The notes: generated by a model from the letters alone, not told the origin. A stretch of 64,000 nucleotides of DNA from Candidatus Omnitrophota bacterium (GCA_022705945.1 JAKJDL010000008.1:642-64641); one strand, 5' to 3'. Shown: positions 15,497 through 63,451, counted from the stretch's first letter. Program-made: numbers and translations.

Positions 15497-18400
15497 TTAA
15501 GCGGCGGAGGAGAGAGCGGAGTAAGCGGCATGAATTTCTGTCAGATAATTGCTGAGAAGCCGGCTTGTCGTGCGGACCTTCCCGAAAACCCTCGGCCCGC
15601 CGATCCAATCACGGACGGCGAAAAGGAGCGTGACGCCTTTTTGCGAGTGTTCGCGAGGCAGATCGTCATGGATAAGGTAGGATTCCTTCAGTTTCTCCGG
15701 CGCTACGGCATCCAGCCGGGCCGCAAATTCATCCAGGGTATCGACATTTTCCCGCGCATCAAAAACACATGTTCGTCCCGGATTTTTCAGAAGAAGTTCC
15801 CACGAGGCATTCTGGCGGGCTTCAACAATGATCCGGGATCTTCCCGCCGGCCTCCCCCGCGAACGACGATTCTGCGCCGCTTCCCTGATTAAACCGTTTT
15901 GAAACTCAAGCAATTTTTCTCGCGAAGCACCCGGCACCACAATTTGAATGAAAAGATCGTGAGATACCGCCAAATCCACAGCCTGTCTCACCGCGGGATG
16001 CGAAGGATCGATCATCTCCAAAATAACCGAGAGTTTATCCCCCGCATCCCGGGCTTTCACATCCTGAAAGATTATTTCCAGACCCCGGGTTGCGGCGTCG
16101 CTCTTATTCGCTGCGGAGCCCGATCCGACAAGCAGCGCGATCATTCTTTCGCGTCCCATTTCCAGAACTCTCGAATGACGGATCACTCCCCTCGCGGCAT
16201 TAACCGCTACTTGTCTTTCTGATTCGGCAAGCTCGGCACGCATTTGCTTTTCAGAACCTGTTTCACGGGTTTCGGAACGGGCGAGCTTTCCGTTCATCTT
16301 CAGCGGATCTCCCGTAATAGTTATTGAAAAATTACTTCCGAGGGAGCCCTTATCCGTGAGAAACCCGAGCTTTTCACCCCGAAGCAAATAGTTTTCATAA
16401 AAACGATCCGAGCGCTCCCAGTAGGAGGTCCAGACCAAATCCTTCTCGCCTTTGCGATACAACAAACTTAATACCGCGTCCATCAAAAAAACGCCCTTGC
16501 CCTTATCTCCGTCTTTTTTCGAGACAATTCGTTTGAGATTATTCAAAGAAAAAACCGTTGCCGGCCTTAGATGCGCAAATCCTCTAAGGTTATTCTTTTC
16601 GCCCAGCAACAACAGGGTCGTTGAAACGCCCCCGATGGCCCTGTCCCAATCCTCCTTGTTTCCAAAGGCTTCCCTGTCTTCAAAAGCGGCTCGCTCAAGT
16701 GCCGCGATCTCACCGGCAATATCGCTTTTTGCTTCCGCGGCCAACCTTATGCGGCCGAGGTCAACAATCGTTCCGAACACCGGATCGCTCGCGATAACAG
16801 ATTCGTCAGGGATTGCTAGTTCCGAAAGAGCACCGGCGGGCGGCCGGGGCACATCGGATCCATCCTTCCGAATCTCGCTTCGTTTGGCCGGACTTTCCGG
16901 AGAGGGGGCAAAAACCCACCGGAGCAGGGTGGTATTATCCGGCGCATATTCTCCTCCGGCAAATTCAATATAATCCTGCGCTCGCGCCGATCCCGAAGCG
17001 AGGTAGCGGATCCGTTCATCTTGTATCGTTTTAAGATCGCCGACGTGATAACCATGAATGCCATCGGTCGCAACAAGTATCTCTACCGAACTTTTCGCGC
17101 CTCTCAGATCCAGACGGGTGATGAAGGGTTTCGACACCAAAACCTTTCTGAAGCTTCTGTCACCGAAGGCTCGGGTCAGAGAAAAAAAATGGCGCGTGCG
17201 AAGGTTCATTAACCGCGGGACATTCGAGCTTTTAACTATTTTAAAACCGGGAGCAGAAAGCAGCGCGGGATCATCGCCGACGGTATGCTGAGGGAAAGAC
17301 AGAAACTCACGGTTGTCTTTCAGGACATAAACGGGAGAATCTCCGACAATCATCACGAAGAGGTCCTTTTTATTGTCGGGAACAAAAACCGCTGATAGCG
17401 TCGACCCGGAATCAAACCAAACCGTCAAAAGATGAAGTGTGCGGAATGTCCCGGAGAATGCCGCCCGGATATCACCTCCGCGCAGGAGAACCATAAATCT
17501 AAAAACGGGGGCGAGCAACAACTGAAGCAGTCTTGAGACGCGGGAGCCGTTATGCCCGTCCATAACGGCCATCAACCTCCCGGACGAAAGGAATCCGGGA
17601 ACCGCAACCCGGATCTCCTGATTTATAAAACGGTCCTCCTGATATTTTTTTAATCCCCGGGTTTGGGCCGACTGTGGAACTTCCCGTAACTCGGATCGCT
17701 TTATGACGGCTCCGTCGGGGTTGACCCAAAAGGTTTTGTAAATTTCTTCGTCCAAAAAATGATTGGATTTAACCCGAATGCGGCGGGCTCCGGTCTCATT
17801 ATCGGGCTTTCCGACGCTCACCGCGATCCCGATCATGTGGTCGTGATCATTATGAATTAGCACGGGACCAGAAAAACTTTCCCGAATCGTTTTCAAAAAA
17901 CCCTCTCTCGCCGATTCTCCCGCAGCGAAAAGATGCACTGCCGCTTTTTCTGTAATTCCTTTTTCCAAAAAAATTCTTTTGATGCTGGCAAGATACTCCT
18001 GAAGTTCCGGGTTCGAAATATAATTCCTGTCGCTGTTCCATGGCGAAATGTGCGCCGCACCCACCTTCCCATTTTCAAAAGCGAGAAGGAAAACGCATTG
18101 GCCTGACTGAAGTCCTCCGGAAGCAAACGGCTCATTATCATAAACCTGCAGCATATTCTCCCTGAGATAGCCCCTGATACCCTGGGGAAAGGGTATCCCC
18201 GCGGTGATGTCGTAAACAGGGTTTTCGGGATAATCATCCGGCGGTCTTTCACCCGTGATCATCTCTGTGATCAAATGTCCGAGAACCTTTACCGAGGGAT
18301 TCGTTTGGTAGCGAATAGCGCCGCAAATTTCAAGAAACATTACGGCCGAAAAACCGGTCAGGGCGGTCCGGTAAAGAATTTTCGGCAGCCGGGAAATCCG

Positions 18401-21400
18401 CGGCGAGATTATTTGTCTCAGTTCGCTTCGCCGCGGGTAATTCTTTCCTTCGGGCTCGAAAACAAAGCCCACCTGCCAGCCGCTGACACCGGAATCAAAA
18501 ACAGCTTGCCGTTCAAAAGGTTCCGTAAGCCGGAACCCATGCTTTTCAGCCTCATGAATAAAAAAATCCATCTGCTGAAGATCTTTGGCGGCGCGGATCC
18601 TTTCTTTTAAAAGCCATTCTCCCCTGCGAAAATTTTCTTCGAAGATCTTTAGAATTTCGGCGGTTTTTCCGGGATCCGGGGTGTCGCCGGAAGCGCTGAT
18701 GATAGTTTTGAAAATCTCCAGAACCCGCGAAAGAAAGGCAGCGGATAAAGGATCCTTTTCACCGAAAAACCATATTTCTGCCTGACGTTCGGCCGCCAGG
18801 ATTTTTAAGGTTCTGAGGCTTCTCAATATGCCGGAAAAGCCATTTGGGACATCCGGGGATTCAAGGAAAGCGTTGACGGCTTCAAGAAGACCGCTTTCCC
18901 TGATACGTTCGAATTGCTCCAGATCGATCTTGGCTTTTTCGATGATTCCCGAATCGGCGCGGTGCATGATAAAAAGAGCTCTTGCTCCTTTCTTCATGAC
19001 TCTGGTAAGTTTCAAGAGAACCTCCGCCTCGTTCATGTACTCCAGGGCGTATTGGCTGACCACCGCATCCAGATCTTTCGGGAGTTCCGTCAGGTCCAGA
19101 TCCTCACCCCGGGACCGGACAAAATGAACGCTCTCGGGAATATAATCCTTGCCGATATCCGCTCCGTCCAACGCCCAAAGCTCGAAGTTTTTCTTCGTCT
19201 GAAGCGCTTGCCGGGCAACAAAAAGATTTCCGGCACCGAGATCAAGGACCTTGGAGCCGACAGGAACTCCTTCAAAGAAGTTCTGCCAAAAAGCCCCATA
19301 GGCTTCCTGATGCCTTGCATCCAGAGAGGTTTCACGTTCTCCTGAAAAATGCTGTGTCCACCACAAAAAAGGTTTATCCAATGCGTGATTTTCGGTCTTG
19401 ATGGTCTGTGGAAGCGGAGACGGTTCCGGCTCACTTTGAACGGATCGAACCGCCTCCTCCGGACCGTGAGAAGAAGCAATCCGAAAATTGTTTAAAAAAT
19501 CCCGAACAAACGGGTTCGCCATCAGCTTTTCCATAGAAGAGGATATGTTGAAACTTTCCGTCAGAGACGCATCTGTGAGCTGCTTTTTCGTGAGAAAAAG
19601 AATCTCAGAGACCTCGCCTTGCCCTTTGATGCTCTTTTTCCATTTTTTAAGGCGTTTGATGAATTCAGAATAGTTTTTCCCCCGGGCATCGTCCAAAAAA
19701 ACCTTAAACTCTCTTATTGCCGAAATTTCACGGGGAGTCGGGATATAAACATAAAAACTGGTTCGTCGAGGCTCCCACTTTCTTCCGTCATCAAACATAC
19801 CACGCTCTCCGGCAAGAACGAGATTCCCTTCCGGCTGATAACCTTCACCCCAGATATGCGCCATCCCTGTCTCCTCGGAAATTTCCCTCAGGATTGTTGA
19901 ATCATAAGGGTTCTGGGCCCGGGAGTAAGTGCCGGGCTCTACCATACCTCCGAAAAATTTCATTTTTTGTTTGCCTTCGTTCTCGTGAGGTGAACGCATC
20001 AGAACAAATTCTTCGGTGTCCGGGATAAACAGAACTGCCTTGGCGTTGCGAAGCAAAACCTGTTTTCCCTCCTTCCGTTCCCTTTTAACCGAGCCGCTGA
20101 TAAATGTTCCATCCTCAAGAAAAACAAGATCGGCGACCCCGGCATCCAGGCTGCCGAGGATATGTTCTTCTCCGTTCGACATAACCTCTATCACTTCCAG
20201 ATGCCGGCCCGAAAGACGAAGCTCTCCCGAAAGAACTTTTTGAAGAAGCCGTGTCCGATGTTTCGGAAGGATCGGTGTTTTTGATGTCTTGCCAAGCACG
20301 CCAAGCTGATTGCGAAGCGTGAAATAATCGCGGGGGATTTTAAAAAGACGGGCAATTTTCTTTAACCATTTCCCGGGAGTTTTAAAAAAGAGAACAAGTC
20401 TTCCCCGGACGAATCTTTCTCTGAAATGACGAGGGAAAGAAAACTTGTCATTCGAAGCATTATCAAAGCCTCTCGCTTCGGCTCGGACGGAAACGGCTTC
20501 GCGAGATTCATAAATTGTTTTCGTGCCGCCGGGGACGGCAGAGGGCTCCGCTTGATCCCGATCCGCACCGGATTCTCCCGGGGATTTTTGGGAGGCGACC
20601 GATCTGATTTCATATCTGCCGGTTATTTTTTCCTTTTCATCGCGGAAATCTTCCGCACCCAAACCGGCCTTTCGGGCGTCCGCCGGGAGTTCTCCCCCTC
20701 CCCACGAAAAACCGTGGGCCGCCACCGCCGGGGACCTGAGGCGAGCGATCAACTCATGGTCAGGCACATCCCGGCTGCTGATTTTTTGAAGGGCTTCCCG
20801 AAATTTTTCGAAAAGATGATCAGCGGTAGCGGCGCCAAGGTCGTTTCGAAGATGGGCAAAACCTGCGCCGACGGAGGAGATTCGGATACTGGAAGGCATC
20901 GCCGTATTCCTGAAAGGCTTTTTCGGGGCTTCCTTGCTTTCCGAAAGAGGTTTGCATGTCCGTTCATTTTTAAACCCAAGCATGAGATCAAGATAAGGGC
21001 CCGGATTTTCCGGTTTTGTAATACGCGGTGAAACGCGAATATAAGAAACACCGTTTCTCCGAAATAATTCCGCAATTCCTCCGGAGTGGAATCCTCCCGT
21101 GACAAGAATGGCGTTGGATTCCTTGAGTAAGCGCATCTTCCTGAGCGTTTTATCAAATATTATTTGTTCACGTGCCGTAGCGGTTTTATAAAAACTGAGC
21201 GCGGCCGAAAAAGCCGCCTGAAGGCCGGGGGAAGAATGGAGGGCGGAAAATGGGGTTTTAACTTCACTGTTTCCCGCAGAATGCCATCCGCCATCCAGTT
21301 GCTGGTATTCCTCCCTCGTCATCTCCAGCGCAAAGAGTTTTTTCAGAAGTAGGTATTCCCTGTAGCGTTTTACAGTGTTTTGCTCCTCCCGGCTCGACGC

Positions 21401-22576
21401 GAGTTTATCGAGAATCATGCCGCGGAGCTTCGCGGTTTCTCTTAAAAGATCTTCCGCCTGAATCTCTGAGGAAAGAATCGAAATACCGGTCAACCGGGTC
21501 AAACAAGGGTATTCCTCGAACCGGAATCCCCTGGGCACGGCAACCGCGTAAAAAGTTTCGAGCTGGGTGCGGACATCAGAAACCCGGGAGGATGATGCCG
21601 GCCGCAAGACGGAGTCAAAGTCCCGAAAAAAATCGGTTAATTGTTTTTCTTCCAGCCAGGTTTTTAGTTTTTTTTCTTCGAATTGTTCGCTTCCATCCGT
21701 CCGATCGCCCTCTTTTTCAAGAGCTTTCAGCCTGAAAAACCGAACAAGCTGGGGCCAGTCGTATTGTTCCGCGGGATCAGAAAGATCGACTTTGAGGTAG
21801 CTGACGGCATCCTTCATCAATCTTTCCAAACCGGCAAAGCGCTGGTCCGCGATCTCTTCCCAAAAGGCCCACTCCTTAAAAAAAGCCCTGAGTTCAGGGT
21901 TAAATATCCGGGCAACTTCTCCCGAGATTTTAGTGCGAAGCTTTTTCAGAAAAAGATCCGCCTCCGCCTTGTTGGCGTAAACTTCCCTGAATTGTTCCAG
22001 GTTCTTTTTATAAAGAGCCAAATCTTCCGCCCCCCAAACAACAGGAAGGGTTTCACGGGCCGAACCTTGCTTCGCCGAAGCTGCCGCGGCAAGATCCAGC
22101 TCGACTCCTCCGGCAAGCCCCATGCGGTTAAGCTCGGCAAGAAACTTCATGTTAAGATCAGCGTCGTCAAAAAAATGAAGCGCTTCGGGATCCAGCTTCC
22201 GCCACGCGCCTTCCAGGAAGACCGTTTTCAAACCGTGGGTTCTTCGAAAATAACTTAAGAGTTTTTCAATATTAGCTTGCCCTTCCGGCTGGCCGTGAGC
22301 TTCCTCAATGTGGATAACAAACGGCACCGGGAAGGCCGCGGGAAGCTTTTGATGGAGAGGTTTAAAGCTCTCACGGATCATTCCGAAATCCGGAGGGACC
22401 AGGATTTCATCAATAAGGGAAGGGAGATTAACCTCTGCCCGCGGGCCTGAAACCTGGAGCGGAGCGGCAGCCTGCAAAACCGTGGTTGATGAAAAAATAA
22501 TCAGCATGGCAAAGCTGACCACGCGCAACCAAATATAAGCCGCCCCCTTGTTTATCAGCATAAACTTTTCTTCCAA
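15497..22576 (-). CDS. Giant secreted multidomain protein (2359 aa): signal peptide, shared N-domain, then Nudix, SAM-MTase, PP2C phosphatase and GNAT-like modules
   Basis: Uninterrupted 7.1-kb ORF with a signal peptide (MLINKGAAYIWLRVVSFAMLIIFSSTTVLQAAAP). The N-domain is homologous to those of the 7155-aa and 729-aa ORFs (HIEEAHGQ...NIEKLL; ILVTGGFHSGGIAELFRRNGVSYIRVSP). Nudix box GGMVEPG...ILREISEETG, MTase motif I VLDLGAGN, and PP2C motifs MDGHNGS/SGSTLS/VGDSPVY/LTRAFGD/VATDGI. Confidence 0.85.
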   Translation of the reverse strand: MEEKFMLINKGAAYIWLRVVSFAMLIIFSSTTVLQAAAPLQVSGPRAEVNLPSLIDEILVPPDFGMIRESFKPLHQKLPAAFPVPFVIHIEEAHGQPEGQANIEKLLSYFRRTHGLKTVFLEGAWRKLDPEALHFFDDADLNMKFLAELNRMGLAGGVELDLAAAASAKQGSARETLPVVWGAEDLALYKKNLEQFREVYANKAEADLFLKKLRTKISGEVARIFNPELRAFFKEWAFWEEIADQRFAGLERLMKDAVSYLKVDLSDPAEQYDWPQLVRFFRLKALEKEGDRTDGSEQFEEKKLKTWLEEKQLTDFFRDFDSVLRPASSSRVSDVRTQLETFYAVAVPRGFRFEEYPCLTRLTGISILSSEIQAEDLLRETAKLRGMILDKLASSREEQNTVKRYREYLLLKKLFALEMTREEYQQLDGGWHSAGNSEVKTPFSALHSSPGLQAAFSAALSFYKTATAREQIIFDKTLRKMRLLKESNAILVTGGFHSGGIAELFRRNGVSYIRVSPRITKPENPGPYLDLMLGFKNERTCKPLSESKEAPKKPFRNTAMPSSIRISSVGAGFAHLRNDLGAATADHLFEKFREALQKISSRDVPDHELIARLRSPAVAAHGFSWGGGELPADARKAGLGAEDFRDEKEKITGRYEIRSVASQKSPGESGADRDQAEPSAVPGGTKTIYESREAVSVRAEARGFDNASNDKFSFPRHFRERFVRGRLVLFFKTPGKWLKKIARLFKIPRDYFTLRNQLGVLGKTSKTPILPKHRTRLLQKVLSGELRLSGRHLEVIEVMSNGEEHILGSLDAGVADLVFLEDGTFISGSVKRERKEGKQVLLRNAKAVLFIPDTEEFVLMRSPHENEGKQKMKFFGGMVEPGTYSRAQNPYDSTILREISEETGMAHIWGEGYQPEGNLVLAGERGMFDDGRKWEPRRTSFYVYIPTPREISAIREFKVFLDDARGKNYSEFIKRLKKWKKSIKGQGEVSEILFLTKKQLTDASLTESFNISSSMEKLMANPFVRDFLNNFRIASSHGPEEAVRSVQSEPEPSPLPQTIKTENHALDKPFLWWTQHFSGERETSLDARHQEAYGAFWQNFFEGVPVGSKVLDLGAGNLFVARQALQTKKNFELWALDGADIGKDYIPESVHFVRSRGEDLDLTELPKDLDAVVSQYALEYMNEAEVLLKLTRVMKKGARALFIMHRADSGIIEKAKIDLEQFERIRESGLLEAVNAFLESPDVPNGFSGILRSLRTLKILAAERQAEIWFFGEKDPLSAAFLSRVLEIFKTIISASGDTPDPGKTAEILKIFEENFRRGEWLLKERIRAAKDLQQMDFFIHEAEKHGFRLTEPFERQAVFDSGVSGWQVGFVFEPEGKNYPRRSELRQIISPRISRLPKILYRTALTGFSAVMFLEICGAIRYQTNPSVKVLGHLITEMITGERPPDDYPENPVYDITAGIPFPQGIRGYLRENMLQVYDNEPFASGGLQSGQCVFLLAFENGKVGAAHISPWNSDRNYISNPELQEYLASIKRIFLEKGITEKAAVHLFAAGESAREGFLKTIRESFSGPVLIHNDHDHMIGIAVSVGKPDNETGARRIRVKSNHFLDEEIYKTFWVNPDGAVIKRSELREVPQSAQTRGLKKYQEDRFINQEIRVAVPGFLSSGRLMAVMDGHNGSRVSRLLQLLLAPVFRFMVLLRGGDIRAAFSGTFRTLHLLTVWFDSGSTLSAVFVPDNKKDLFVMIVGDSPVYVLKDNREFLSFPQHTVGDDPALLSAPGFKIVKSSNVPRLMNLRTRHFFSLTRAFGDRSFRKVLVSKPFITRLDLRGAKSSVEILVATDGIHGYHVGDLKTIQDERIRYLASGSARAQDYIEFAGGEYAPDNTTLLRWVFAPSPESPAKRSEIRKDGSDVPRPPAGALSELAIPDESVIASDPVFGTIVDLGRIRLAAEAKSDIAGEIAALERAAFEDREAFGNKEDWDRAIGGVSTTLLLLGEKNNLRGFAHLRPATVFSLNNLKRIVSKKDGDKGKGVFLMDAVLSLLYRKGEKDLVWTSYWERSDRFYENYLLRGEKLGFLTDKGSLGSNFSITITGDPLKMNGKLARSETRETGSEKQMRAELAESERQVAVNAARGVIRHSRVLEMGRERMIALLVGSGSAANKSDAATRGLEIIFQDVKARDAGDKLSVILEMIDPSHPAVRQAVDLAVSHDLFIQIVVPGASREKLLEFQNGLIREAAQNRRSRGRPAGRSRIIVEARQNASWELLLKNPGRTCVFDARENVDTLDEFAARLDAVAPEKLKESYLIHDDLPREHSQKGVTLLFAVRDWIGGPRVFGKVRTTSRLLSNYLTEIHAAYSALSSAA
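17027..17584 (-). other. PP2C-type Ser/Thr phosphatase module inside the 2359-aa protein
   Basis: Ordered PP2C motifs: AVMDGHNGSRV, DSGSTLSAVFV, VGDSPVYVL, LTRAFGD, ILVATDGIHGY. Confidence 0.7.
18932..19294 (-). other. Class-I SAM-dependent methyltransferase module inside the 2359-aa protein
   Basis: Motif I GSKVLDLGAGNLFVARQAL, then an acidic loop (WALDGAD) and motif IV-like VVSQYALEYM. Confidence 0.6.
19697..20044 (-). other. Nudix hydrolase module inside the 2359-aa protein
   Basis: GGMVEPGTYSRAQNPYDSTILREISEETGM matches the Nudix box GX5EX7REUXEEXGU. Confidence 0.7.
20987..22324 (-). other. Shared N-terminal domain (copy 2 of 3) within the 2359-aa protein
   Basis: Aligns by eye with aa 60-545 of the 7155-aa protein and aa 55-440 of the 729-aa protein. 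Conserved His motif plus the TGGFH[ST][DEG]G motif. Confidence 0.7.
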
Positions 22577-51300: not shown

Positions 51301-54300
51301 CGCTGGGATACTGATCATAATCGCGTGAATGGTTGAGGCGAAGCGTTTTTTTCTTTTCTCTCAAAAGGAGACTCAGCTGGAAGATCAGATCCAGGTTGGC
51401 GGTCAGGTCCCCCTGCTCCAGAATCCACCGGATCGCCGCAAATGCATCGCCCCAGGTCTTGATTCCCCGAATGTCCGGCATATCTTCCCGCGCTTCCGAG
51501 CGGATAGCCGCACCGCCGTGTGAAACGGTTTTGAGGAATTCGCCGAGAGGCATCCCGGATTCCAGGGAAAGGTTTTCCGGGAGAGCGGCGCCGGTCGCTC
51601 TCGAGATCCATCCGGCAAAAACCCTTTGGATTATAATTTTTTTCCCGGGGTGAAAACCTCCTGGCCCGGACAGCTTCCCGAGAATGTTGATCAATTGCAG
51701 GGCTGCCTTTTTCTGTTTTACGGCGTCTTGAAAAATCTCCCGGGGCGTCTCGACAAGAAGCCAGCCTTCCGGTTTGTGCGCATCTCCGCCTCCCATCGCG
51801 AAAAGGATACCGGCCTCGTGCTCTTTCTTGTCCGCTTCCGCATAATTTGCCTTCCGGGCATGAATCAGACCCGGCTTTATTTCAATACCGGACTCATCGT
51901 GAGCATGCGTGTACGTGGAAAAGCCCGCTCCCCTGAGAAGAAGGATGCTCAAGGGATTGGCTTGAAGATGCATCCTGTTCGCCCCATCCATCCGGACGCT
52001 GAAGCTGACGCTCCTGTTTTCCTCTTGCTCTTCGGCCGAAAGGGCCCTATCCGTATTCAGCTCGATCATGGCCTGCACGGGAGTTATCGTGCCCAGGCGT
52101 TTCTTAATGCGTCTCAAGATCTCCTGGCTGATTCTGAGCTGGATACTGCGGTCAAATTTATAAGGATCAATCCACTGATACCGGACAAACTCATGAAATG
52201 TTTTCCCCGCCGGCGGCTCGCTATCGGTCCCCGTAACCTCATTTGTCCCGGCATAGAAACAGAGCATCTTCCAGGCCATGAGCGCTTCGTCCGAAGAAGG
52301 ATCATCCTTGGCGATCTCAAAATAGACCCGCACGATCTCCTGCATATGTTTTTCGAGCTCCGCCTGGCCGCAGATCAAAAACTCCGTCCCTTTCTCTTCA
52401 GAAAGCTGAAACCCTTTTTCTTTTAGATAGGTAACGGCGATCCTGCGCCCTAAAAGCTCGCGAAGATTTTGAAGGTCCTTCGAGAGGCGTCTCTTCTCAT
52501 AACCCGGATCGTCCGTCAAATATTTCAACCGGAAATACATATCGATCTCGGCACCCGTCAACGACCGGACCATCCAGCGGTTGTCTTTTATCGTAACGGC
52601 TCCATGTCTGTCGTTAGAGCGGATCGATTTCATCGTTTTTTCCGAGGACGTTCCCGGGGCAAGAAGCCACTGATAAAATTTTTCGCGAGTTTCGGAACGC
52701 CGTGCTGAACTATATGGCAAAGACTCTGCCGCCGCGGAGACAAAAGCTCCGGAGGCGAAAGCCCGGACCTCGGAACGCCCTGATATCTTTTTACACATTT
52801 CAATAAGCGCTGTCGTCGACTGGTCATGACCGGTGACCTCGGCACCGGCCGGAAGCTGGGGAAGGATATTTTTGGCAAGCAATTTCCCTAGCTGAACACC
52901 CCACTGATCAAAGCTATAGACATTCCAGATCACCCCCTGGACGAAGATCTTGTGCTCATACATCGCAATAAGAGCGCCAAGAACCCTCGGCGTCAACTTC
53001 CTAAAAAGGAAAGTATTGGTGGGATGATTCCCTTCAAAGACTTTATGCGGAGCAAGCTTTTTAGCTTCTTCCGGCGTTTTTCCGTCACGAAGAAGCTGCT
53101 GATACGCCTCCTCGCGGGTCTGGCCCGACATGAGAGCCTCGGTTTGGGCGATGGCATTCGCGATTAATTTATCCTGGTGATCTCCCAACGGATAATGGCT
53201 TGAAGCCGCCAGCAAAAAGTCCGCCGGGATCAGCTTGGTCCCCTGGTGGATCAACTGGAAGAAAGCGTGCTGCCCGTTGGTGCCGGGCTCCCCCCAGATA
53301 ACAGGGCCCGTTTGCCAGCGCACGCGCTTGCCGTCCCGGGTAACGGTCTTGCCGTTGCTTTCCATATCCGCTTGCTGCAGATAGGCTGGAAGACGACGGA
53401 GCGACTGGCTGTAAGGAAGTATCGCGTAGGTTTGGGCGCCAAAAAAATTGTTGTACCAGATCCCGAAAAGCGCCAATAGCACGGGGAGATTTTCTTTCAA
53501 AGGCGCCTTCCGGAAATGTTCATCCATGTCATAGGCGCCCCGGAGAAGCTCCTCGTAATTATCATATCCGATGAAACAGGCAACCGACAATCCGACGGCA
53601 GACCAGAGAGAATAACGCCCGCCGACATAATCCCAGAAGCGGAACATGTTCCGGGTATCGATCCCGAAACCCGTGACCCTTTCTTCCGACGTTGAAACCG
53701 CCACAAAATGCCTCGCGACAAACGAGGGATCCCCGGCTTTTTCCAGAAACCACTCCTTCGCGGTCGCGGCATTCGTAAGGGTTTCCTGGGTGTCGAATTG
53801 TTTCGAGGCGATAATGAAAAGCGTCGTTTCGGGATCAAGCCCTTCCAGCGTCTCCGCAATATGCGTTCCGTCCACGTTCGAAACGAAATGCACGCGAAGA
53901 TCTGGACGCGCCTGGTAGGGCTTGAGAGCTTCCGCCGCCATCATCGGCCCGAGGTCCGAGCCTCCGATCCCTATATTCACGATATCCGTGATGGGCTTGC
54001 CCGTGTACCCCTTCCACCGGCCGGAAATGATCTTCTCGGAAAAATCCTTCATCTGCCTCCGGACTTTCCGGATCTCCGGCATCACATCACGGCCGTCCAG
54101 CATCACAGGCCGGTCTGAAAAGTTCCGGAGCGCGGTGTGAAGCACGGCCCGCCCTTCGGTCCCGTTGATCCTCGCGCCTTCAAACATCATCCGGATCGCA
54201 CGCGGCACTTCCGTTTCCTCCGCAAGCCGAAGAAACTCCTCAACAACATTGTCCGTCAAGCGGTTCTTTGAAAGATCGGCAATGATTTCTTCGCCGTTTC

Positions 54301-57300
54301 CGAGAACGACCTCATGCGTATATTTTTCCGCCCGGCGGGGATCAAGGGAAAAGATGTTTCTCAGATGCAGCTTGCGAACATCCCTGAAAATTTTCTTGAG
54401 CGACCTCCAGGCTTCCGTTTCGGTCGGATCATAACTCGGGAACACCTCGCCTGAAGAAAAATCCTTCTTTCCCGCGGGAATCTCGGAACGGGCTTCGGAG
54501 CGGGCCGCCGAAGATGCTTCAAGTTCATTCTCAAGCAGAGCGGTATCATTCCAGCGAAACGCTCTTCCGTTGATCACGATTTCGCGTTTTCCCTGAGACC
54601 TTGCCTTGACATTGCTTGTGGCGAGACCTTCCAGAAGCTCGCCCCGGCTTGTCGCAAAGAAATTCTTTCCGTCGATCATGACACCGATCTTTCGCGCGTT
54701 CACTTTCCAAACGATCACTTTGCGTGTCTCGGAGCGGGAAACAACAAGATCCGGGAACCATGCGTGGAATTCACCTTCCGTATATTCCCCGGCGGGGTCC
54801 CTGGCCCAAACATCCATATCTTCCGGCGCGGTTAAATGGATGAAATTTCTTCGCACATCAAGTCGTCGCCCTGTCAGACCGAGCGCGGGATCATTCCGGA
54901 AAGCGCGGGCACGCAAACTGTCGGGGTGCTTTACTGCAGCGTCTTTCGGGTCCGTTTCACCTGCAAATTCATCCTTCATCTGCTGGAGCGTAGACGCATC
55001 CGCCGCAAAAGGGTCCTTCTTGAGCCAGATCGCAATGGTAGGCGTTTCGGCCCCGGTAAAATCTTCGGCAAGTGCGGGAAAAAATGCGTTGTAAGCGGGG
55101 ACTGTTTTTCCGCGATAGGCTACCGGAATATAGTCTTCGTCAGGCAAAGAGAGAAGCCCGATGCGAAAAGCCCTGGGACCCTTTCCAAGCTTTTTGACCT
55201 TGCTCATTCCAAAAGGCGCATCCCAAATACTTGCCAGATGTTCCGGCGACAAGCCTGTTTTTTCCATAAGTTCGTTCGCCGAAAACGCAAGCTGGTCCCC
55301 GGGAACAATTTCTTTTGAAAAATCAAGAACCGCCAGATGCTCTTTGACCGCAGTCCGCTCCTCGTCGTTCAAGGCCTTGTCTCCCAGGGTGGCGACTGCC
55401 GCGTGACGAGAATAATGTTCCCCGAGAACATCTTCCCCGCGAATAGTCCCGGCATCCACCACGCGAACGGCATTGGCGAAATAACCGCGTTTTCCGGCCG
55501 CGCCGAGAACCTCGACGATCGTTTTTTCCGTGATCGTCCCGACAGAAGGCTTAATCAAAAGCACGAGGCTGTCTTTCATATCAGGGTCCTGAAGGCGACG
55601 GCCATTCCCGAAATCCACATAGCCGGTCGTTCCCTCCTTATACAATGCGAACGCTTCAGCTGCGATCTTCTCGGCTGTTCGCATTTCGGAACGGTGCTTT
55701 CCGGTCATTATCTGAAACACCGCCAGCCGGGCATTTGGAATATCAAGAGGTAAAACCCGCTTCTTCCCGGACATCCGGGAACTCATTCCGCTTACGGTAA
55801 CCCCCAAGACTCCCGCGCCCGCGCTTCTCAGTTTGTTCAAAAATTCCGGGATTTTCCGGCCCGAACGGGTTTCCGAGCCGGCAGCCGCAGTATCCGTTCT
55901 TGTTTCCGAACGCGCCCAGTCGGTCAGAATGGAACTTAACGCCTTGACATGATCCCCCGTCACAACATAAGACAAACCGCCGCCGTGGGGATTGATCGTC
56001 GCCATCATCGGTTTTTCAAAAACCCCGGCAATCACGCCGTCTGCTTTCATTTGATCCAGAACGTCTTTAGACTTCACCGCACTCTGAGAGTTCGTCCAAA
56101 AAACCACCGGAGTCTGAAACCCGTTCCGGTCAAGCGCCCGCCACATGCTCTCATGCCACCGCGCTTGATCACGACGTCCCGCATAGTCATCAAAACCGGC
56201 CAGAACCAGGTCGAAGGGACGGCTCGCCAGCGCCAGCCAGAGATCTTCCCGCTGAAAAGAAAGGTCGATCGTTTCAATCGTCGCGGCCGGGCTGATAGCC
56301 TGGGCCAGCTGGCGAAGCGACGTTGCGCCGGCTTTTGTATCCGCAACAAGAATTCTTTTGATCCACGGGAACGCATCCATCGAAAGCGGTGTTATATTTT
56401 TCGCCTCCTCTTTTCCTTTTTCGGAAGCCGAGCTGTCACCGCCCTCGCGCGCTTCACTGCGGGTGAGGCCGGTGTCCGGAATGATTTCGATCCATTCAAC
56501 GTTACTGATATCCGGGATCCTCGCTTGCCGGCTCAGCTCATCCACGGTCACAAAACCAAGAACTTCCTTATAAGCTCCTACTGTGATCTGATAAGTGATC
56601 TCCCGGTGCCGAGGACGCACCAGGACAAGGGTCCCATGAAGCGCTTCCTCAGTAACGCCTTGCGCCTTGAGGAAATCCGAGATTTTTCCGCGGCTATCTC
56701 CGATCAACTCTTTCGAAAAGCGCCGTGTCGGAACTTCCGGACGACCTTGTCCGGTCCTGAAGATCTCATCCTCTCCCCTTGTTTCCGAGCGGACAACCGG
56801 AGCTTTTATTCTGGTCAAAAAGTCCTGTGCGGAAAAAAGCCCGTTGGCGCCCTTGCGGCCTCCGGACACAAGCGGCTCCGACAGGAACCGTCCCGCGGTT
56901 TTTCTCACTCCTTGATCCGGATGATTCCTCGCGACGGCTCTGAGCCGGGCACGCACCATTGCCTCGCTTACCTTCTCCCCGCGAACCTCCGAGCGACCGT
57001 CAACCAAACTCCCGCCGTCTCCGCGGCTTAGATCCAAACGCTTCGGACTGCCCGGCGCCCGCAGTGCTTTCCGTGAAGGTCGTGGGGGAGCTTTTTGCCG
57101 AAGTCGAATTTTATCGATTGTCCGCAGCAATTCGCTCCTCTCGGCTTCCGAACCGTTTACTTTTAAAACTTCCCGCTCCGCCGCGTCCAAGGCTTGACGG
57201 ATTCTGGGATCTTCCTGCAGCCCCTCCATTTCGCGGACAACGTCCGTTGCCTCAGACCACTTCCGAGCACCTGCCTGCCTGTCAAGCGCCTTGACCAGCC

Positions 57301-60300
57301 TGGGTATTTCGATGCGGTCTCTGAAAAAACCCCCGACAGAAGCGGGCATTCTGTTGCGGGAAAACTGAACGGAAAACAAAATGAGGGCTCCTGCGGCCAG
57401 GAATCCGGCCCAGCGGAGTCTCCGGTTGGGAGCGTCCTTTCGTGACGGGATCCCGCCGAGAATGGCTTCTATGGAATAGACCAGCAGAGGTCCCGTCAAA
57501 GCAAGCATCCATGCACCATCATGATGCATCCCGGCCCTCGAAACATGGGGGCTAAAAAAGACCCTTATCGCAAAGAACACGACGGCGGCAGCGCTATAGG
57601 TCAATCCGAAAAAAGCGCTGATCCCTATCACCGGATCCCTCTCTTCCGGCTGCTCGTCCGGAACGGGCGGCATGTCCGGCCATTGAATGACGGGCGCGGC
57701 TTCTTTCCGGGCTTTCAACAGATCGGCAAGAATCCAGGGGGTCATTATCGGCGAAAAAAGAATCCCTATCATCTTCAAAAATCCGGGGACAAACAAAGCG
57801 CTCAAAAAAACAATCCCCGCACTGAAAAAATAGGCTCTTAGCACATTCACGACAAAGGGGTACTGCGAGGCATACCAGGGGAAAAGGAACAAGCCCGCGA
57901 GGCCAAGAAACAGCGCGGCACCTCCCAGATAGGCAATCCCTCCTTCCGTATCCAGCTTTTTCTCCGAGGTCATGAAAAATGACGGCATGAAAAAAAACGC
58001 CAGAAGAACCGCTACGCCGAGAGCAATTCGTTTTTTAAACACTCTGTCCCTCTGGGACGGCGAAGAAGCGGCAACCTCCCGAAGCGTCGGGCCATAATCA
58101 ATGAGACCGCTCCCCAGGAGACCCTGATCGAACAAGGGATCCTTGATCGGGTCCGCATGGCGACGGATAACATTCAAAATTTCCAGGGTTGAAAGATTTG
58201 GATTAAACTCCAGGATCCGCGCGATCATCCCTGCGACCCGGGCCGAAGCAATCGATGTCCCCGCAACCTCAAACGAAGTTACTGAAAAAAAGTTGTTTTC
58301 TTGCAGAAAGTCGCGTCCGGAGGCACAGATATGAACGTGGGACCCGAAATTCGAACGAGCCTCCTTTCCGCGCGGCGTTGCATCGCCGACGCCGATCACG
58401 CCGTCAAACGCCGCCGGGAAATTAGGGTTGCCGTCCGGAATGTTCCCGGCCGCCGCCACCAGGATCGCCCCCGCGTCCGCAAGCCGGCCTATCAAGATCT
58501 TCTCCTCTTCGGTATAAAACTTTCCGCCAAAACTCATGTTCACGACAACGCGTCGGTCAGGATTTGCCTTCATAAAATCCAAAACCGTTCCGAGGGCCTT
58601 GTAATAGCGACCGATGTCGACTTGCCCGGACACCGGGTTGACTACAGCGATTGAAATCACTTCAGCGCTAGGCGTCGATTGCCTGAGCACTTTGGCCACG
58701 ATGCTCCCATGATCCACTCGGGTTTCCTCGTCCCCGCGGACAGGGCCTTCCACAAAAGAGCTTTTTATGCCCGTGTCGAGTACAAAAACAGCAACGAGGT
58801 CCTTCTGCGATGCGGCGACAACCTGCATGGGTAAACCGGTCAACGCCGCAGCCAAGACTACCATTCTGAAAATCCTTAAAAAACTCCCTGACATTTCCGC
58901 AAAGGGCCGGGTTCTTCCGGAACGAGTACGCGTCTCGGCCCGCGAGGCGGTGCCGTCTCCGCCTTTCCAGATGCTACGCTCGACTTCCGGTTGCCGGGCA
59001 GTAGCGGATACGGGAAGGGCGCTCCGCGCGGAAACTAAAAACTGCTGTTGCAGATACCGCTGCCCGACTTCCGCAAGAAATTGCGCGTCGCTTCTAAGGG
59101 GCGGCGCCTGCTGGCTTCGTGCGATATCGCTTCCGAGAAGCACGTTCAGATAGTTTTTCCGGTCATCGATGCCTGCCTTGCCGATCTGCGGCGTGATACC
59201 GATATATGTTGCGCCGGAAGCGGTGATTTTTTCTTTCAAACCGTCCGTGTGAAATCCTCCGGTCACAAGTACCGCTCGCGGTTTTTTTGACGATTTAAGC
59301 CGGGCGAGGGAATTGCGGAACATGATGTCCTCGCGCTCGATAGCAGCCGCATAGAAATCGAGCGCTTTCTGAAAAAGCACCCTGATTTCCCGCGCGGAAC
59401 TCGCCTCCCGGCCGTTGGGCCGGGTCCCGAGTCCCCTGACAAGTTTTTCGGGAGTTATTCCCCGCGATTTGACTTGCTGATATTCTTCCCGGCTCAGTTC
59501 GAGATTAAAAAGTTTCCTCAAAAGCCGGTATTCGCGGAGCGCGGCGGCAAGGCGCTTTTCTTCCGGTGTCACAGCGAGTTTTTCGATGATCAGCTTCGTA
59601 AGCGATTCGATCTCTTTCCGGAGCGCGTCGCCCCCGATCTCCGACATGAGGATGATCTGCTGGATGTACAAGCGGAGGTTCGGATAGGGATCGAACGAGA
59701 AATCGGGCGGAAGGGCGTCGAGCAGGCGCTCGAAAACAAAGCGAGTTTTATAAACCGGGAGATCGTGTTTCGCGGCAGATTCGAAAATTTGCTCAATCTC
59801 TCTCAAAAGGGTCTCGGAACCCGTCGCCCGGGACTCGTTTTGATTTCTCGTTTTTCGATCCCCTGGTTCCGAGGAACTGGTTTCAAGTTTTTGGATAGCA
59901 TTCAAAAATTCCTGTTTCTCCTTCTCAACCTTCGCCGCGTCGATCTTCCCGCCGATCTTTCCCAACCGGAAATAACGGACAAGAACAGGCCAGTCCGTTT
60001 GAGCACGAACGTCCTTGAGATCGACAGGTGCATTTTCATCCGTCGTCCGCCCTCCGTCATTCCATACCGGGTTTTTAAAGGCCGCTGTCTTCAGCACCTC
60101 CAGCCAATCCCCGAGCGGAAGGCGCTCTTCATCGAAATCGGTATAACGGATGAGAAATTCGCGGAGATCTTTATTGAGGGAGATGCCGGCCTGCTTTTGC
60201 CATGCAATGCGTTTGGCGGACAAAAATTTCGAAATTGTTTTGCGGCTCTGATAGACCTTGCGAAATGCGTCGAGACCGGCGCGATACGCTGCGGCTTCTT

Positions 60301-60772
60301 CAACTCCGTAGCCTTTCATGGCGCCGGCCGATTCCATTAAATAAGCTTCCGCTCCGGTAAGTTCGGCAACGCGCAGCAGCCGGTCGTTGATGGTGCGGCG
60401 GAGTTCGGCGTCTCCTCCCGAAAGGTCTATCGAATCGGGACGGAGCTCATAACCTGCGCCCTCCAGATAAACTTCCTTGATATTATAATTTTCACTGAGG
60501 AACCGCAGGATGTCCCTGATGTTCTTCTGGGCATCATAATTGGCGTGAGCTTCCTGGACATGAAGAAGAACCGGAGCGTTCGGACTGCCGAAAATGATCT
60601 CGTGAACTTTGCCTAGCTCGGCCGGAATCTCGAAGTTCTGGACCTGGTTTGCGTGAGCCAGCACTTCCGTCGCGGCATAAGCAAGAGGAGACGGAGTGAG
60701 GGTGTTGGTCGTAAAAAAAGTAACGGCAATCAACCCGGCCAGAAGTCTTTTGATCTTCTTTGAGTAGCTCAT
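39305..60772 (-). CDS. Giant multidomain secreted/membrane polyprotein-like protein (7155 aa): signal peptide, shared N-domain, S8 subtilisin, TM block, receiver-like domain, phosphoglucose isomerase, PPDK-type dikinase module, GT5 glycogen synthase, GT35-like glucan phosphorylase and further unassigned modules
   Basis: Single uninterrupted 21,468-nt ORF. GAGG RBS upstream of the ATG at 60772. Signal peptide [33 protein letters not shown]. Domain motifs are listed in the sub-features below. Confidence 0.85.
43553..45175 (-). other. Alpha-glucan phosphorylase (GT35)-like module, aa about 5200-5740
   Basis: [41 protein letters not shown] resembles the GGLGxLAGD...LxGVGLLY N-terminal block of bacterial/archaeal alpha-glucan phosphorylases. 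Weaker than the other calls. Confidence 0.45.
45923..47701 (-). other. Glycogen/starch synthase (GT5)-like module, aa about 4358-4950
   Basis: [40 protein letters not shown] (the KTGGL-type ADP-glucose motif) ... [10 protein letters not shown] ... [34 protein letters not shown] (the PSRFEPCGL...GGLADTV block). Confidence 0.75.
48638..50110 (-). other. PPDK/PEP-synthase-type nucleotide-binding domain plus phospho-histidine swivel domain, without a PEP/pyruvate TIM barrel (dikinase-like), aa about 3555-4045
   Basis: [25 protein letters not shown]; [25 protein letters not shown]; [31 protein letters not shown] (PPDK_N blocks); then [25 protein letters not shown] (PEP-utilising His domain). No PEP-binding barrel is recognisable afterwards. 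Confidence 0.7.
52853..54400 (-). other. Complete glucose-6-phosphate isomerase (PGI) module, aa about 2125-2640
   Basis: [94 protein letters not shown] and [15 protein letters not shown] are the conserved PGI blocks, in order. Confidence 0.85.
56003..56359 (-). other. CheY-like receiver-type domain (possibly degenerate), aa about 1472-1590
   Basis: [11 protein letters not shown]...[10 protein letters not shown]...[10 protein letters not shown]...GVFEKP mirrors the receiver beta-strand/Asp/Thr/Lys layout. The acidic pocket is partly substituted. Confidence 0.35.
57338..58030 (-). other. Multi-pass transmembrane block (about 6-8 helices), aa about 915-1145
   Basis: Consecutive about 20-aa hydrophobic stretches ([18 protein letters not shown]; [20 protein letters not shown]; [19 protein letters not shown]; [21 protein letters not shown]; [22 protein letters not shown]; [15 protein letters not shown]). 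Confidence 0.65.
58088..58810 (-). other. Subtilisin-like serine protease (peptidase S8) module, aa about 655-895
   Basis: Catalytic-triad motifs in order: Asp in [10 protein letters not shown], His in VDHGSIVA, oxyanion Asn in NMSFGG, and Ser in [11 protein letters not shown]. Confidence 0.8.
59138..60595 (-). other. Shared N-terminal domain (copy 1 of 3), aa about 60-545 of the giant protein
   Basis: [22 protein letters not shown] and [29 protein letters not shown], conserved with the 2359-aa and 729-aa paralogs. Confidence 0.7.
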
Positions 60773-61040: not shown

Positions 61041-61050
61041 CGTGGATTCG

Positions 61051-61090: not shown

Positions 61091-61261
61091 ATACAGTGAC
61101 AATTCTACGCAGTGATGGTTCCATGTTGCCTATGCGGAATTTCTCGGTTACAGTTACATATACTTTTACTTTATGTTTTGTCCATGCTGTTTGTTTTGCT
61201 CGCAACGCTTGTTGATTCGCAAAAAATTTCCGCGGGCGGCACCGCATCATAAAGGACCAAG

Positions 61262-63451
61262 ATGAATAAAATCCTCCGTCTTTCGATTTTCCTGATCCCG
61301 GCATTATTCGCACCGGGACATCTCCGGGCAGAAACTCCGGCAGCTCCGGACAATGGAAACATGTCGATTGATTGCCTTTCCGTGCCTGACGAGATCGGGA
61401 GAATTAAAGAAAGATTCAAGGGCTCTTTGCCGCGGACTGTCATCCAGATCCAGGATGTGCATGCCCATGCTGTCGCGCAGGAAAATATAGCGGCGATTCT
61501 TACGCGTCTCAAGACCGTTTTCCGGGTTGACCGGGCCGCGCTTGAAGGCGCCTGGATCTCCACTTCCCTTCCCAAAAGCCGTTCTCTCCCCTCTTCGCGC
61601 GAAAAACAGCTTCTTGCAAGAACCTTGATGGAGGAAGCCCTTCTGTCGGGTCCCGTTTACGCCGCGATCCTTTCCCCCTCCCCGATCACTCTCGTCGGCA
61701 TCGAGGATGAAACCCATTATGAAAAAAATCGTCGTCTCTATCTGGAGCATTCCAAGGTCAGGGCGACCATTGCCGAAAAGCTGGCCGTTTACCTTGATCG
61801 GTTGAAACATTCGCAGAAAACCCTGTGGAATCCGGAGCTATCGGCTTTTTATAAACTTCTCGACAGTTATTACATGAAAGGCGATCTTTCCGTTTATCTC
61901 CCGGGGGCATTAAAAGTTTCAGAGGCGCACCGGATCGATCTTTCGGATCTGGAGCAGATCGCGCTCGTCAGGAAGATCACGGCTCTTGAGAAACAGCTTG
62001 AGCGGGAACGCTTTGAAAAAGAAACGAAACAGCTGCTGCGCGAATATAAAAACATGCCTTATACCCTTGAAGAGCTTATCCGTGGCGGACGAATACCCGA
62101 CGAAAAACTGGGTTTTTATCCGGAGATCAAAAAAATTCAGGCTCTCATAAAACTCAGGGATTCCCTCTTGACCGCTCAGCTTTGGCTTGAGCTGGAAACA
62201 ATGGCACAGCGCATCGCAGATTCCCTGATCAAAAACAAGGACGAAAACGAGCTTTGGCAAAAAACAAGGCGCTTTTATCCGGTTCAAGGTGTTCTGTTCC
62301 TGGAGGCAACCCCGGACACTCTCGTTTTTCTTGAAAAAAATCTTGTCGCCGTCCGTGAGGATATGACCGAGGCCGGGCTCTCCGAAGAATTCGGGCTTTC
62401 CCTCGCTTTCTACGCGGCCGTCAAAGAGCGCGACGAAATTTTCGCGAACAAGTTGCTGACAGACCCGTCCCTGCAGGGAACGGTTGCGATAGTCACGGGA
62501 GGATTTCATACCGAAGGTCTCTCCCGCAAATTCCGGGATGCCGGCATCTCTTACATCACGATCTCACCGGAACTTGGTGACGGAGTATTCGATAAGCTTC
62601 TTTATGAGAAGCGATTGACGGAACCTTTAGTAACGGCCGGACAGGCTTCTTCCGTATCCGCGGCTCCCTTCACCGCCAGTCAGACTCTCTCCGAGCTTAG
62701 GAACCGCCTTGCCCGGGCAGATGAACGCTTCCCGCCGAGCCTGGATGTCCTTCTGGAAACCAAAAACATCCTCACTGCCGTCGGCGTTTACAAAGGCGAT
62801 GTTCCTCTCTCCGGCTTGAAAAAATCCGCTTCGTCTTCTTATTCGCAGGGGCCGGACTCCCCGGCCGATGTTTCGAGAAAATCATTAGCCTTGTTTTCGG
62901 CCGAATCTTTTATTCGGCAGTCCAGGGATTCGCAGCTGGCCGAAATCCGCGCGTGGATGGAAAAATCCGGTCGGGCGGATTCCAGGGCCATGCTCGCCGC
63001 GGAAACGGAAGCGATGAAAAAACTTTTAGAAAATCCCGTTTCGGAAGCGTTGTTTGACCGGATGATTGAAGCCGGGGACATCCTCGCCCTCGCTCAAAAC
63101 CGGACTATCGATCCCGCTCGGCTCCCCGACCGGCTTGTTTTTTCGAAGGGCGTCGAACGTTTTGAGGTCCGCAACGAGGATCCTTCGCTTCCGGATATCG
63201 AGGTCCTGCTTCAGGGAACTCCCCGTTTTAAACGCTTCGCCCAGAAATATCCGTTTGCGATCATGAAATCCGGCTACGCGAACGAAAGGTTCGTCGTTCT
63301 CCCGGAATCCCCTGCCGCGCTTGTTCTTTACCGGCTTATCGCGCTGGACGCGGGGCTCTACAGGGCCGCAAGAAATCCGGAGTTCGTGAAATTGCTGGAG
63401 GGGCTTGTAGCCGAGATCCTGTCGAGCGGGATCGTGGAACGGGCCGCTTAA
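61262..63451 (+). CDS. Secreted paralog (729 aa) consisting of the shared N-domain plus an about 290-aa uncharacterised C-terminal tail
   Basis: Signal peptide MNKILRLSIFLIPALFAPGHLRA. IQIQDVHAHAVAQENIAAIL and AIVTGGFHTEGLSRKFRDAGISYITISP are conserved with the two giant proteins. AAGGA RBS upstream. Confidence 0.8.
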   Translation: MNKILRLSIFLIPALFAPGHLRAETPAAPDNGNMSIDCLSVPDEIGRIKERFKGSLPRTVIQIQDVHAHAVAQENIAAILTRLKTVFRVDRAALEGAWISTSLPKSRSLPSSREKQLLARTLMEEALLSGPVYAAILSPSPITLVGIEDETHYEKNRRLYLEHSKVRATIAEKLAVYLDRLKHSQKTLWNPELSAFYKLLDSYYMKGDLSVYLPGALKVSEAHRIDLSDLEQIALVRKITALEKQLERERFEKETKQLLREYKNMPYTLEELIRGGRIPDEKLGFYPEIKKIQALIKLRDSLLTAQLWLELETMAQRIADSLIKNKDENELWQKTRRFYPVQGVLFLEATPDTLVFLEKNLVAVREDMTEAGLSEEFGLSLAFYAAVKERDEIFANKLLTDPSLQGTVAIVTGGFHTEGLSRKFRDAGISYITISPELGDGVFDKLLYEKRLTEPLVTAGQASSVSAAPFTASQTLSELRNRLARADERFPPSLDVLLETKNILTAVGVYKGDVPLSGLKKSASSSYSQGPDSPADVSRKSLALFSAESFIRQSRDSQLAEIRAWMEKSGRADSRAMLAAETEAMKKLLENPVSEALFDRMIEAGDILALAQNRTIDPARLPDRLVFSKGVERFEVRNEDPSLPDIEVLLQGTPRFKRFAQKYPFAIMKSGYANERFVVLPESPAALVLYRLIALDAGLYRAARNPEFVKLLEGLVAEILSSGIVERAA

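Follow-up and report, generated by a model that had tools for sequence, protein, structure and literature searches.

Three proteins encoded in a 64,000-nucleotide stretch of Candidatus Omnitrophota DNA (GCA_022705945.1 JAKJDL010000008.1:642-64641; hereafter the window), here called A (2,359 amino acids [aa]), B (7,155 aa), and C (729 aa), begin with the same N-terminal domain, the head, and continue into unrelated cargo. We place them in one very large, unannotated family of modular proteins, in which the head would be an exported hydrolase carried on polyproteins and the leading candidate for the element that reads the junctions between their modules. We give this reading a probability of roughly 0.55. 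It rests on the homology of the heads, their predicted fold and invariant residues, and a pentapeptide motif, RSExR, that recurs at the borders of the cargo modules. The window had previously been interpreted from its sequence alone (the sequence-only reading) as encoding three secreted paralogs with swappable payloads, possibly toxins, effectors, or giant adhesins.

The head and the family that carries it

Full-length all-against-all BLASTP of A, B, and C returned one colinear N-terminal high-scoring segment pair (HSP) for each pair of proteins. A (residues 18-559) and B (9-563) shared 28% identity over ~550 residues (E = 2e-49). C shared 24% identity with both of them, through residues 15-438 with A (34-519; E = 1e-18) and through residues 36-482 with B (44-572; E = 2e-13). 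The same comparison gave no further HSPs and no internal repeats. A chance or low-complexity origin of the similarity was ruled out by these E-values together with polar residues that are invariant across 136 heads. The three open reading frames (ORFs), their colinear homologous domain, and the lack of relationship among the remaining parts were thus as the sequence-only reading had described them. The two sequence blocks it quoted were also found, H[VI]Q[ED]AH...AQxNI at residues 71-85 of B and (A/I)(L/I)VTGGFH...SYIxI(S/T)P at residues 500-528, ~430 residues after the first. The head occupies ~500 aa in A and B and ~415 aa in C, owing to a shorter helical insert. C is transcribed divergently from B, from which it is separated by a 489-bp spacer (60773-61261).

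Scans of Pfam and NCBIfam gave nothing significant for the heads, and the sole match in these libraries, to FasR (E = 0.0065), was rejected as spurious. Sequence and profile searches of PDB with 3 and 72 sequences returned only coiled-coil-like noise. The earlier remark that the domain could not be placed in a known family therefore held for curated Pfam and NCBIfam families and for PDB sequences. A word-index homolog search reached no more than 7-9 relatives, whether or not a 72-sequence profile was used, and an exhaustive HMMER search with a seven-sequence profile recovered 9,594 cluster representatives (E ≤ 1e-3), 6,212 of them at E ≤ 1e-30. In the 150 best HMMER matches, the head was always at the very N-terminus, was present in one copy per protein, and started at a median position of residue 4, in proteins of 358-7,818 aa. 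A second, internal head copy was considered and rejected, the secondary hidden Markov model matches being insignificant.

A scan of one genome per species located at least 569 loci, so that the further copies for which the sequence-only reading had suggested a genome-wide search do exist. Nearly all titled records were Omnitrophota metagenome-assembled genomes (MAGs), often with several copies per genome, and Omnitrophota MAGs also held the closest loci. A few loci were labeled Planctomycetes or Deltaproteobacteria, and one protein came from Ca. Auribacterota, which also belongs to the PVC group. No relatives of the head were found in a scan of viral contigs. Head-bearing genes occurred as tandem pairs at three loci: L031 (3231-7919 and 9941-15673), L051 (4456-9879 and 9980-18145), and L066 (13-3531 and 3643-7176). 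At two others, a single in-frame TAG interrupts a head-bearing long ORF (L070:16874-16876 and L075:5523-5525) and the same frame continues beyond it; these interruptions could be sequencing errors, pseudogenes, readthrough, or recoding.

Predicted fold and conserved residues of the head

A first AlphaFold model of the head, from 7 sequences, had a predicted local distance difference test score (pLDDT) of 74.5, and a second, from 36 diverse heads, had a pLDDT of 89.9 and a predicted template modeling score of 0.85. Both models showed a small α/β core with strands at residues 54-60, 68-74, 100-103, 153-156, 499-505, and 522-528 (B numbering), interrupted by a conserved all-helical insert of ~330 residues. 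The modeled core has a central parallel sheet and is similar to the solved members of the TIKI/TraB/GumN/ChaN/Ere superfamily; in structure comparison, a Rossmann-like methyltransferase was the only outsider among the top eight entries.

The residues invariant in the 136 heads were H76, E104, G105, G156, E158, R266, E387, Y474, R480, G505-G506-F507-H508, and P528. H76 directly follows strand 1 (68-74), E104-G105 lies at the end of strand 2, and G156-x-E158 lies at the end of strand 3. R480-[ED]481 is in the helix before strand 4 and G505-G-F-H508 follows that strand, both R480 and GGFH being 100% conserved. The helical insert has invariant residues of its own (Q258, R266, E378, and E387), which indicates that it is not a loose linker.

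PrgY of plasmid pCF10, a TraB family protein, reads EIILVGTAH21...DVVCLE44...ERD...VIGQAHLRG, and B can be written in the same register as VLLHVQEAH76...EVYLE104...ERE...VTGGFH508TDG. The distance from H76 to the fully conserved E104 is 28 residues, and the same His-Glu spacing is found in Bcr135 (H85/E113) and RRSP (H3902/E3930) (PMC6254334). Sub-threshold matches pointed to the same superfamily. Pfam ChaN ("Tiki superfamily") was hit by 18 of 72 heads (best E = 0.0014), and deletion of the insert brought the ChaN match to E = 3.8e-4 on the R...GxxH block, on which single matches to DUF5694 and DUF5682 also fell. hhalign aligned this block with the TraB alignment at 25% probability and with PrgY alone at 6.8%. 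On the models, the head is a very divergent new family with the predicted fold of TIKI, TraB-PrgY, GumN, ChaN, and Ere and an intact catalytic-type residue set, falling outside the superfamily at the profile level. The faint likeness to TraB/GumN/TIKI suspected earlier thus extended to fold class, motif order, and spacing and stopped short of a significant sequence-profile match. The suggested HHpred- and Foldseek-type checks had the same outcome, a sub-threshold ChaN/TraB block with no significance in profile searches or in Foldseek against PDB.

Cargo modules, the RSExR motif, and the C-terminal ending

Over residues 1-550 of A and B, about 235 sampled relatives align, and in any later 100-residue bin the number falls to 0-16; the conserved head with a swappable payload, proposed from three proteins, is therefore a property of the whole family. 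The payload had been described as glucan enzymes, signaling or modification enzymes, and a short tail. The domains identified include PGI, a dikinase, GT5/GT1 glycosyltransferase, PP2C, and, weakly, methyltransferase domains, the short tail being the 277 residues of C. PGI of B scored 740 bits and aligned to residues 20-570 of PDB PGI, and B also gave a weak phosphorylase match. The cargo of A had no match in a PDB search, and the tail of C is an orphan with no detectable relatives. Nine other members scanned were mostly without Pfam matches, the exceptions being PPDK-like, PGM, methyltransferase, GHMP-kinase, MraZ-like, and MarC domains.

Domain scans of the cargo of A, B, C, and the nine other members found no toxin, immunity, adhesin, or repeat domains. 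As in polymorphic toxins, paralogs share a conserved N-terminal domain and have unrelated C-terminal parts; the variable toxin domain and adjacent immunity gene of such systems were not found. A cargo of metabolic and signaling enzymes, housekeeping neighbors, and the lack of copies on viral contigs gave no support to the toxin, effector, or adhesin interpretation. Overall, the observation behind the sequence-only reading and its structural hunch stood, and its toxin/adhesin framing did not.

RSExR was often present within the first 100 residues beyond the head. The motif was counted as [RK][SA]E[LMIVTA]R, with expectations from shuffled sequences. B contained 17 copies (0.33 expected), A contained 5 (0.16 expected), and C contained none. 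A family sample of 644,487 residues had 1,114 copies versus 22 in shuffles, ca. 50-fold enrichment in cargo. In a six-frame scan of the window, 22 of 26 matches were in frame in A or B, and there were no in-frame matches in the other real genes of the window, which excludes RSExR as a general proteome feature. The codons of the motif differ from site to site; selection therefore acts on the peptide, and a DNA-level repeat as its origin was ruled out. The motif logo was R(98%)-S(80%)/A-E-[LVAMT]-R; small residues precede it, acidic ones follow, and conservation extends no further. RSEMR (527-fold over expectation) and RSEVR (226-fold) were by far the top cargo k-mers.

The 235 heads contained 9 copies of the motif, as against 2.1 per 1000 residues of cargo. 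Of the 210 proteins whose cargo reached 400 residues or more, 172 carried the motif at least once. In most cases the first copy lay 60-200 residues after GGFH, and the median spacing was 229 residues. None fell inside any Pfam envelope of B. Segments of B bounded by motifs recur elsewhere in the family in quite different places, with a motif falling exactly on each projected end and no copy in between; segment 5168-6463, for instance, reappears at 1154-2430, 1798-3074, 1633-2923, and 2322-3577 in four relatives. These results indicate that RSExR marks the boundaries of shuffled cassettes, and a short site recurring at module boundaries is also what processed polyproteins have. A literature search for the pentapeptide returned only unrelated alginate-lyase motifs.

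The proteins also share an ending. A final [SA]A closes 21 of the 30 head-bearing locus ORFs that have a genuine stop; the remainder are masked, interrupted, or stand-alone heads. Among 153 database proteins, 102 have A as their last residue. The 28 other genes of the window include no example of the [SA]A ending. jackhmmer did not join the C-terminal modules of A, B, and C (33 of 118 for the B-type tail and 7 for the A-type). The ending seen most often, (A)RSA, is similar to the opening half of RSExR. The [SA]A ending may serve as a signal for sorting or as a degron, or it may imitate a processed end.

Two loci, L079 (9138-20009) and L080 (966-11469), from MAGs labeled Planctomycetales and Deltaproteobacteria, encode the head on its own, as a stand-alone protein of 554 or 513 aa that begins with a signal-like sequence, which in L080 is lipobox-like (LLAC). 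Two large genes directly follow each stand-alone head, and the four cargo proteins of these split operons comprise class I aldolase; GAPDH+TIM+PEPCK; PFK; and GPI+GAPDH. All four start with a signal-like segment of their own, and a D-x-L-R-like sequence comes next. Stand-alone heads beside multi-enzyme genes indicate that the head is an autonomous unit that travels with sugar-metabolism proteins, fused to them or not.

Around A, B, and C lie ordinary chromosomal genes: an Mrp/hydrogenase-like complex, SOD, thymidylate synthase, DHFR, an ABC transporter, GGT, transketolase, an M24 peptidase, and menaquinone synthesis. No secretion-system genes were found nearby in the window. At positions 8001-16000, AT skew was strongly positive (0.25 and 0.16) over a minus-strand operon of Mrp/NADH-dehydrogenase-like membrane subunits and an SDF symporter, probably a codon-composition effect of membrane proteins.

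Table 1 Features of proteins A, B, and C in the window (~, approximate).
Feature	Position (nt)	Strand	Residues	Remarks
Protein A	15497..22576	-		2359 aa; signal-peptide-like N-terminus, head, cargo (weak methyltransferase match and PP2C domain); 5 RSExR
Head of A	20942..22408	-	~57-545	
RSExR sites of A		-	698, 1383, 1627, 1899, 2100	
PP2C domain of A	17057..17593	-	1662-1840	In a 272-aa module, RSELR 1627 to RSEIR 1899
C-terminus of A	15497-15520	-		SSAA
Protein B	39305..60772	-		7155 aa; signal-peptide-like N-terminus, head, S8 peptidase, hydrophobic cluster, PGI, PPDK-like dikinase, glycogen synthase, phosphorylase-like modules; 17 RSExR
Signal-peptide-like N-terminus of B	60671..60772	-	1-34	
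Head of B	59123..60637	-	46-550	Predicted TIKI/TraB/Ere-like α/β core split by helical insert (~160-495); catalytic-type residues H76, E104, E158, R480, and H508
RSExR sites of B		-	611, 1260, 1328, 1438, 1621, 1694, 2013, 2091, 2666, 2692, 3091, 4088, 5115, 5168, 6463, 6500, 6911	
First RSExR-type motif of B (RAETR)	58928..58942	-	611-615	~60 residues after head
Peptidase_S8 subtilase of B	58148..58714	-	687-875	
Hydrophobic cluster of B	57362..58042	-	~911-1137	6-7 transmembrane-like segments
RSEAR of B	54488..54502	-	2091-2095	10 residues upstream of PGI unit
Complete PGI unit of B	52787..54460	-	~2105-2662	End-to-end match to PDB PGI chains
RSEVR of B	52763..52777	-	2666-2670	4 residues downstream of PGI unit
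PPDK-like nucleotide-binding and mobile phospho-histidine domain of B	48644..50113	-	~3554-4043	Module motifs 3091, 4088
Glycogen/starch synthase-like GT5 and GT1 of B	45953..47695	-	~4360-4940	Module motifs 4088, 5115
C-terminal module of B	39308..40042	-	6911-7155	RSETR to ...YLATARSA; closes many family proteins
C-terminus of B	39305-39331	-		ARSA
Protein C	61262..63451	+		729 aa; signal-peptide-like N-terminus, divergent head, 277-aa tail; 0 RSExR
Head of C	61373..62617	+	~38-452	Shorter helical insert; H, E, and GGFH retained
C-terminus of C	63425-63451	+		ERAA

Proposed export and function, and comparison with known systems

The leaders of A, B, and C consist, as judged by eye, of a basic stretch, a hydrophobic run of ~12 residues, and a region of small residues (AYA-A in B), which by rule of thumb is the layout of a cleavable Sec signal peptide and agrees with the signal peptides called earlier. 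Chlamydia, another member of the PVC group, exports glycogen-metabolism enzymes and phosphoglucomutase (PMC4829429, PMC9251005). The leader is unusually conserved for a signal peptide, with F19 in 90% of the family, then T-[QNTS], then P-A-P-A-x-A; this conservation may indicate a dedicated recognition step. B has a second signal-peptide-like segment at residues ~615-655 (~58808-58930, minus strand), lying between the S8 subtilase and the first RSExR-type site, which it directly follows; the arrangement looks like the fusion of a once-separate secreted protease gene. A crude hydropathy scan found no hydrophobic clusters after the N-terminus in A or C.

We propose that these proteins follow one order: a Sec-type signal-like N-terminus, one ~500-residue head, a variable string of enzyme modules, and the [SA]A C-terminus. 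The head would be a His/Glu hydrolase, either a peptidase or an esterase, working outside the cytoplasmic membrane. The cargo would be a polyprotein of native-size enzyme modules separated by RSExR processing or junction sites, and the head would recognize these junctions. Judging from its conserved residues, the head is probably an active hydrolase, and export of head and cargo appears similarly probable. RSExR as a proteolytic processing site falls a little below even odds, and the head as the enzyme that reads or cuts RSExR is a doubtful proposition on present evidence. It is the leading junction-reading candidate because no other catalytic domain occurs in all motif-bearing proteins.

Several points weigh against this reading. 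Both the cleavage of RSExR and the role of the head as its cutter are what we infer, and the signal peptides were called by eye. We know of no TIKI-family protease with RSExR specificity, and the superfamily has non-enzyme members, ChaN and PMT C1/C2. C has the head and no motif, and the cargo proteins of L079 and L080 lack RSExR despite the head in their operons. The cargo enzymes PGI, dikinase, glycogen synthase, and S-adenosylmethionine-dependent methyltransferase normally need cytosolic cofactors, and the topology of B is ambiguous, given its internal signal-like segment and 6-7 hydrophobic segments. As for the superfamily assignment, the best insert-deleted head scored 21 bits against the Pfam gathering cut-off of 27.7 (PF04187), no head matched PF01963 or the Ere family, hhalign reached at most 25% probability and covered the C-terminal motif alone, and PDB profile searches gave no relevant match to the head. 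In Foldseek against PDB, the leading entries of the structure comparison again ranked near the top, none of them significantly and nothing at E < 0.2. The first motif is Q-x-A-H where PrgY has G-T-A-H, so that the Gly is missing, and the position of the RRSP-type first Glu is acidic in only 58% of heads. The residue match to the superfamily is one of order along the sequence rather than of clustering in three dimensions.

Among the alternatives, RSExR could be cut by another protease, S8, C39 near some N-termini, or one encoded elsewhere, with the head an unrelated hydrolase such as a glycan or lipid esterase or an N-terminal trimming enzyme. TIKI itself trims the N-termini of Wnt. The S8 peptidase of B directly follows the head, Ere-type relatives are esterases, the D-x-L-R-like motif of the four split-operon cargo proteins lies just after their signal peptides, and cleavage of the giants by C39 or S8 was proposed by West-Roberts et al. 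(10.1101/2023.11.21.568195). However, S8 is absent from A, C, and the nine other members scanned, though A carries the motif, and no domain other than the head occurs in every protein with the motif. We regard this explanation as unlikely.

It is rather improbable that the head is a non-catalytic module for delivery, docking, or anchoring, along the lines of the sequence-only reading, that directs the cargo to the envelope, a secretion route, or a prey surface, or that it is a ligand binder in the manner of ChaN with haem, and that RSExR is a flexible linker or docking motif. Such a role would suit a conserved head with a payload that varies family-wide, the lipobox-like sequence of the L080 head, and the large helical insert, which could be a binding surface. 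It would also suit the best weak Pfam signal, ChaN being a haem-binding lipoprotein and not an enzyme, and C, in which head and tail come with no junction motifs to process. On the other hand, the residues invariant in 100% of heads are those catalytic in Ere, RRSP, and TIKI, and the non-enzymatic PMT has lost them (PMC6254334). The lack of toxin, immunity, adhesin, and repeat domains in the scanned cargo and of secretion genes nearby in the window also speaks against a delivery module.

Quite improbable is a membrane-tethered cytoplasmic "metabolon," in which an uncleaved N-terminal anchor holds head and cargo in the cytoplasm, where the cargo enzymes have their substrates, and RSExR is a linker or a regulatory site, for example for phosphorylation. 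It would accommodate the classic cytosolic cargo enzymes, including the very well conserved PGI and relatives with PFK, aldolase, GAPDH, TIM, and PGM, the PP2C domain of A together with Ser at the motif position in 80% of copies, and the report that nearly half of long Omnitrophota proteins read as inner-membrane-anchored with cytoplasmic domains (10.64898/2026.06.07.730766). Against it, basic residues, a ~12-residue hydrophobic stretch, and a P-A-P-A-x-A-like region form the layout of a cleavable signal with the N-terminus in and the C-terminus out, and each glycolytic fusion protein of the split operons has its own signal-like N-terminus. Many members of the TIKI superfamily are, moreover, extracytoplasmic.

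In its widest form, the exported-hydrolase reading would make this a polyprotein system of the whole phylum Omnitrophota, in which enzyme strings joined by RSExR and closed by [SA]A are exported and their junctions cut or read by the head, so that a toolkit reaches the surface, the periplasm, or prey; we consider this extension speculative and unlikely. Omnitrophota giants rank with the longest known proteins; published accounts call them poorly conserved and for the most part unannotated, and leave their processing unexplained. The giants share a catalytic-type head at the N-terminus, with 9,594 or more cluster representatives, one dominant junction motif, and a C-terminal ending, and these three elements open the question of whether they are cut, and by what, to direct experiment. 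The head would extend the TIKI/TraB/Ere superfamily by a branch that is very large and divergent in structure, and together with the motif it can serve as an annotation marker for such genes and their module boundaries. A literature search found no paper linking Omnitrophota with TraB, TIKI, or Ere. Relative to the curated libraries and literature searched, the head family and its fold placement, the RSExR grammar, and the [SA]A terminus are new.

With the TIKI/TraB-PrgY/GumN/ChaN/Ere/RRSP/HopBA1 superfamily, the head shares the motif order strand-xxAH, strand-E, R-[ED], strand-GxxH; it resembles Ere enzymes in having a helical lobe inserted in the core, and Bcr135 and RRSP in the His-Glu spacing. 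Unlike the superfamily, it has no significant sequence match, its first motif is Q-[DETS]-A-H and not G-x-x-H, its insert is ~330 residues long, and it invariably opens long multi-enzyme proteins, behind a signal-like peptide.

Giant multi-enzyme Omnitrophota proteins have been described before, in papers that mention neither the head and its fold nor RSExR or the [SA]A end (10.1101/2023.11.21.568195; 10.64898/2026.06.07.730766), with N-terminal regions that lacked identifiable domains and with unknown cleavage points (10.1101/2023.11.21.568195). The "Archaeovorin" or "multi-enzyme metabolic" giants share with B the phylum, GT5, GT1, glucose-phosphate isomerase, PPDK, an S8 peptidase near the N-terminus, and transmembrane clusters, and with the family PGM, methyltransferases, and signal peptides. 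B differs from them in being smaller, in having no SecA_DEAD domain at E ≤ 0.01, and in having a single hydrophobic cluster (911-1137) in place of numerous transmembrane helices.

MARTX toxins and viral polyproteins are likewise very long single chains of functional modules with an internal protease domain and short recurring junction sites. MARTX toxins are set apart by a cysteine protease domain, by Leu-X sites and type I secretion, and by effectors that are toxic; RRSP, of the TIKI family, is carried by them as cargo and does not process the chain. In the present family, every member has the TIKI-like domain at its N-terminus, the modules are metabolic enzymes, and their cleavage is a proposal. 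The exported enzymes of Chlamydia are separate proteins with type III secretion signals and have no head, giant fusion, or junction motif; they nonetheless provide a precedent for housekeeping glucan and sugar-phosphate enzymes outside the cytoplasm in a host-dependent PVC bacterium (PMC4829429, PMC9251005).

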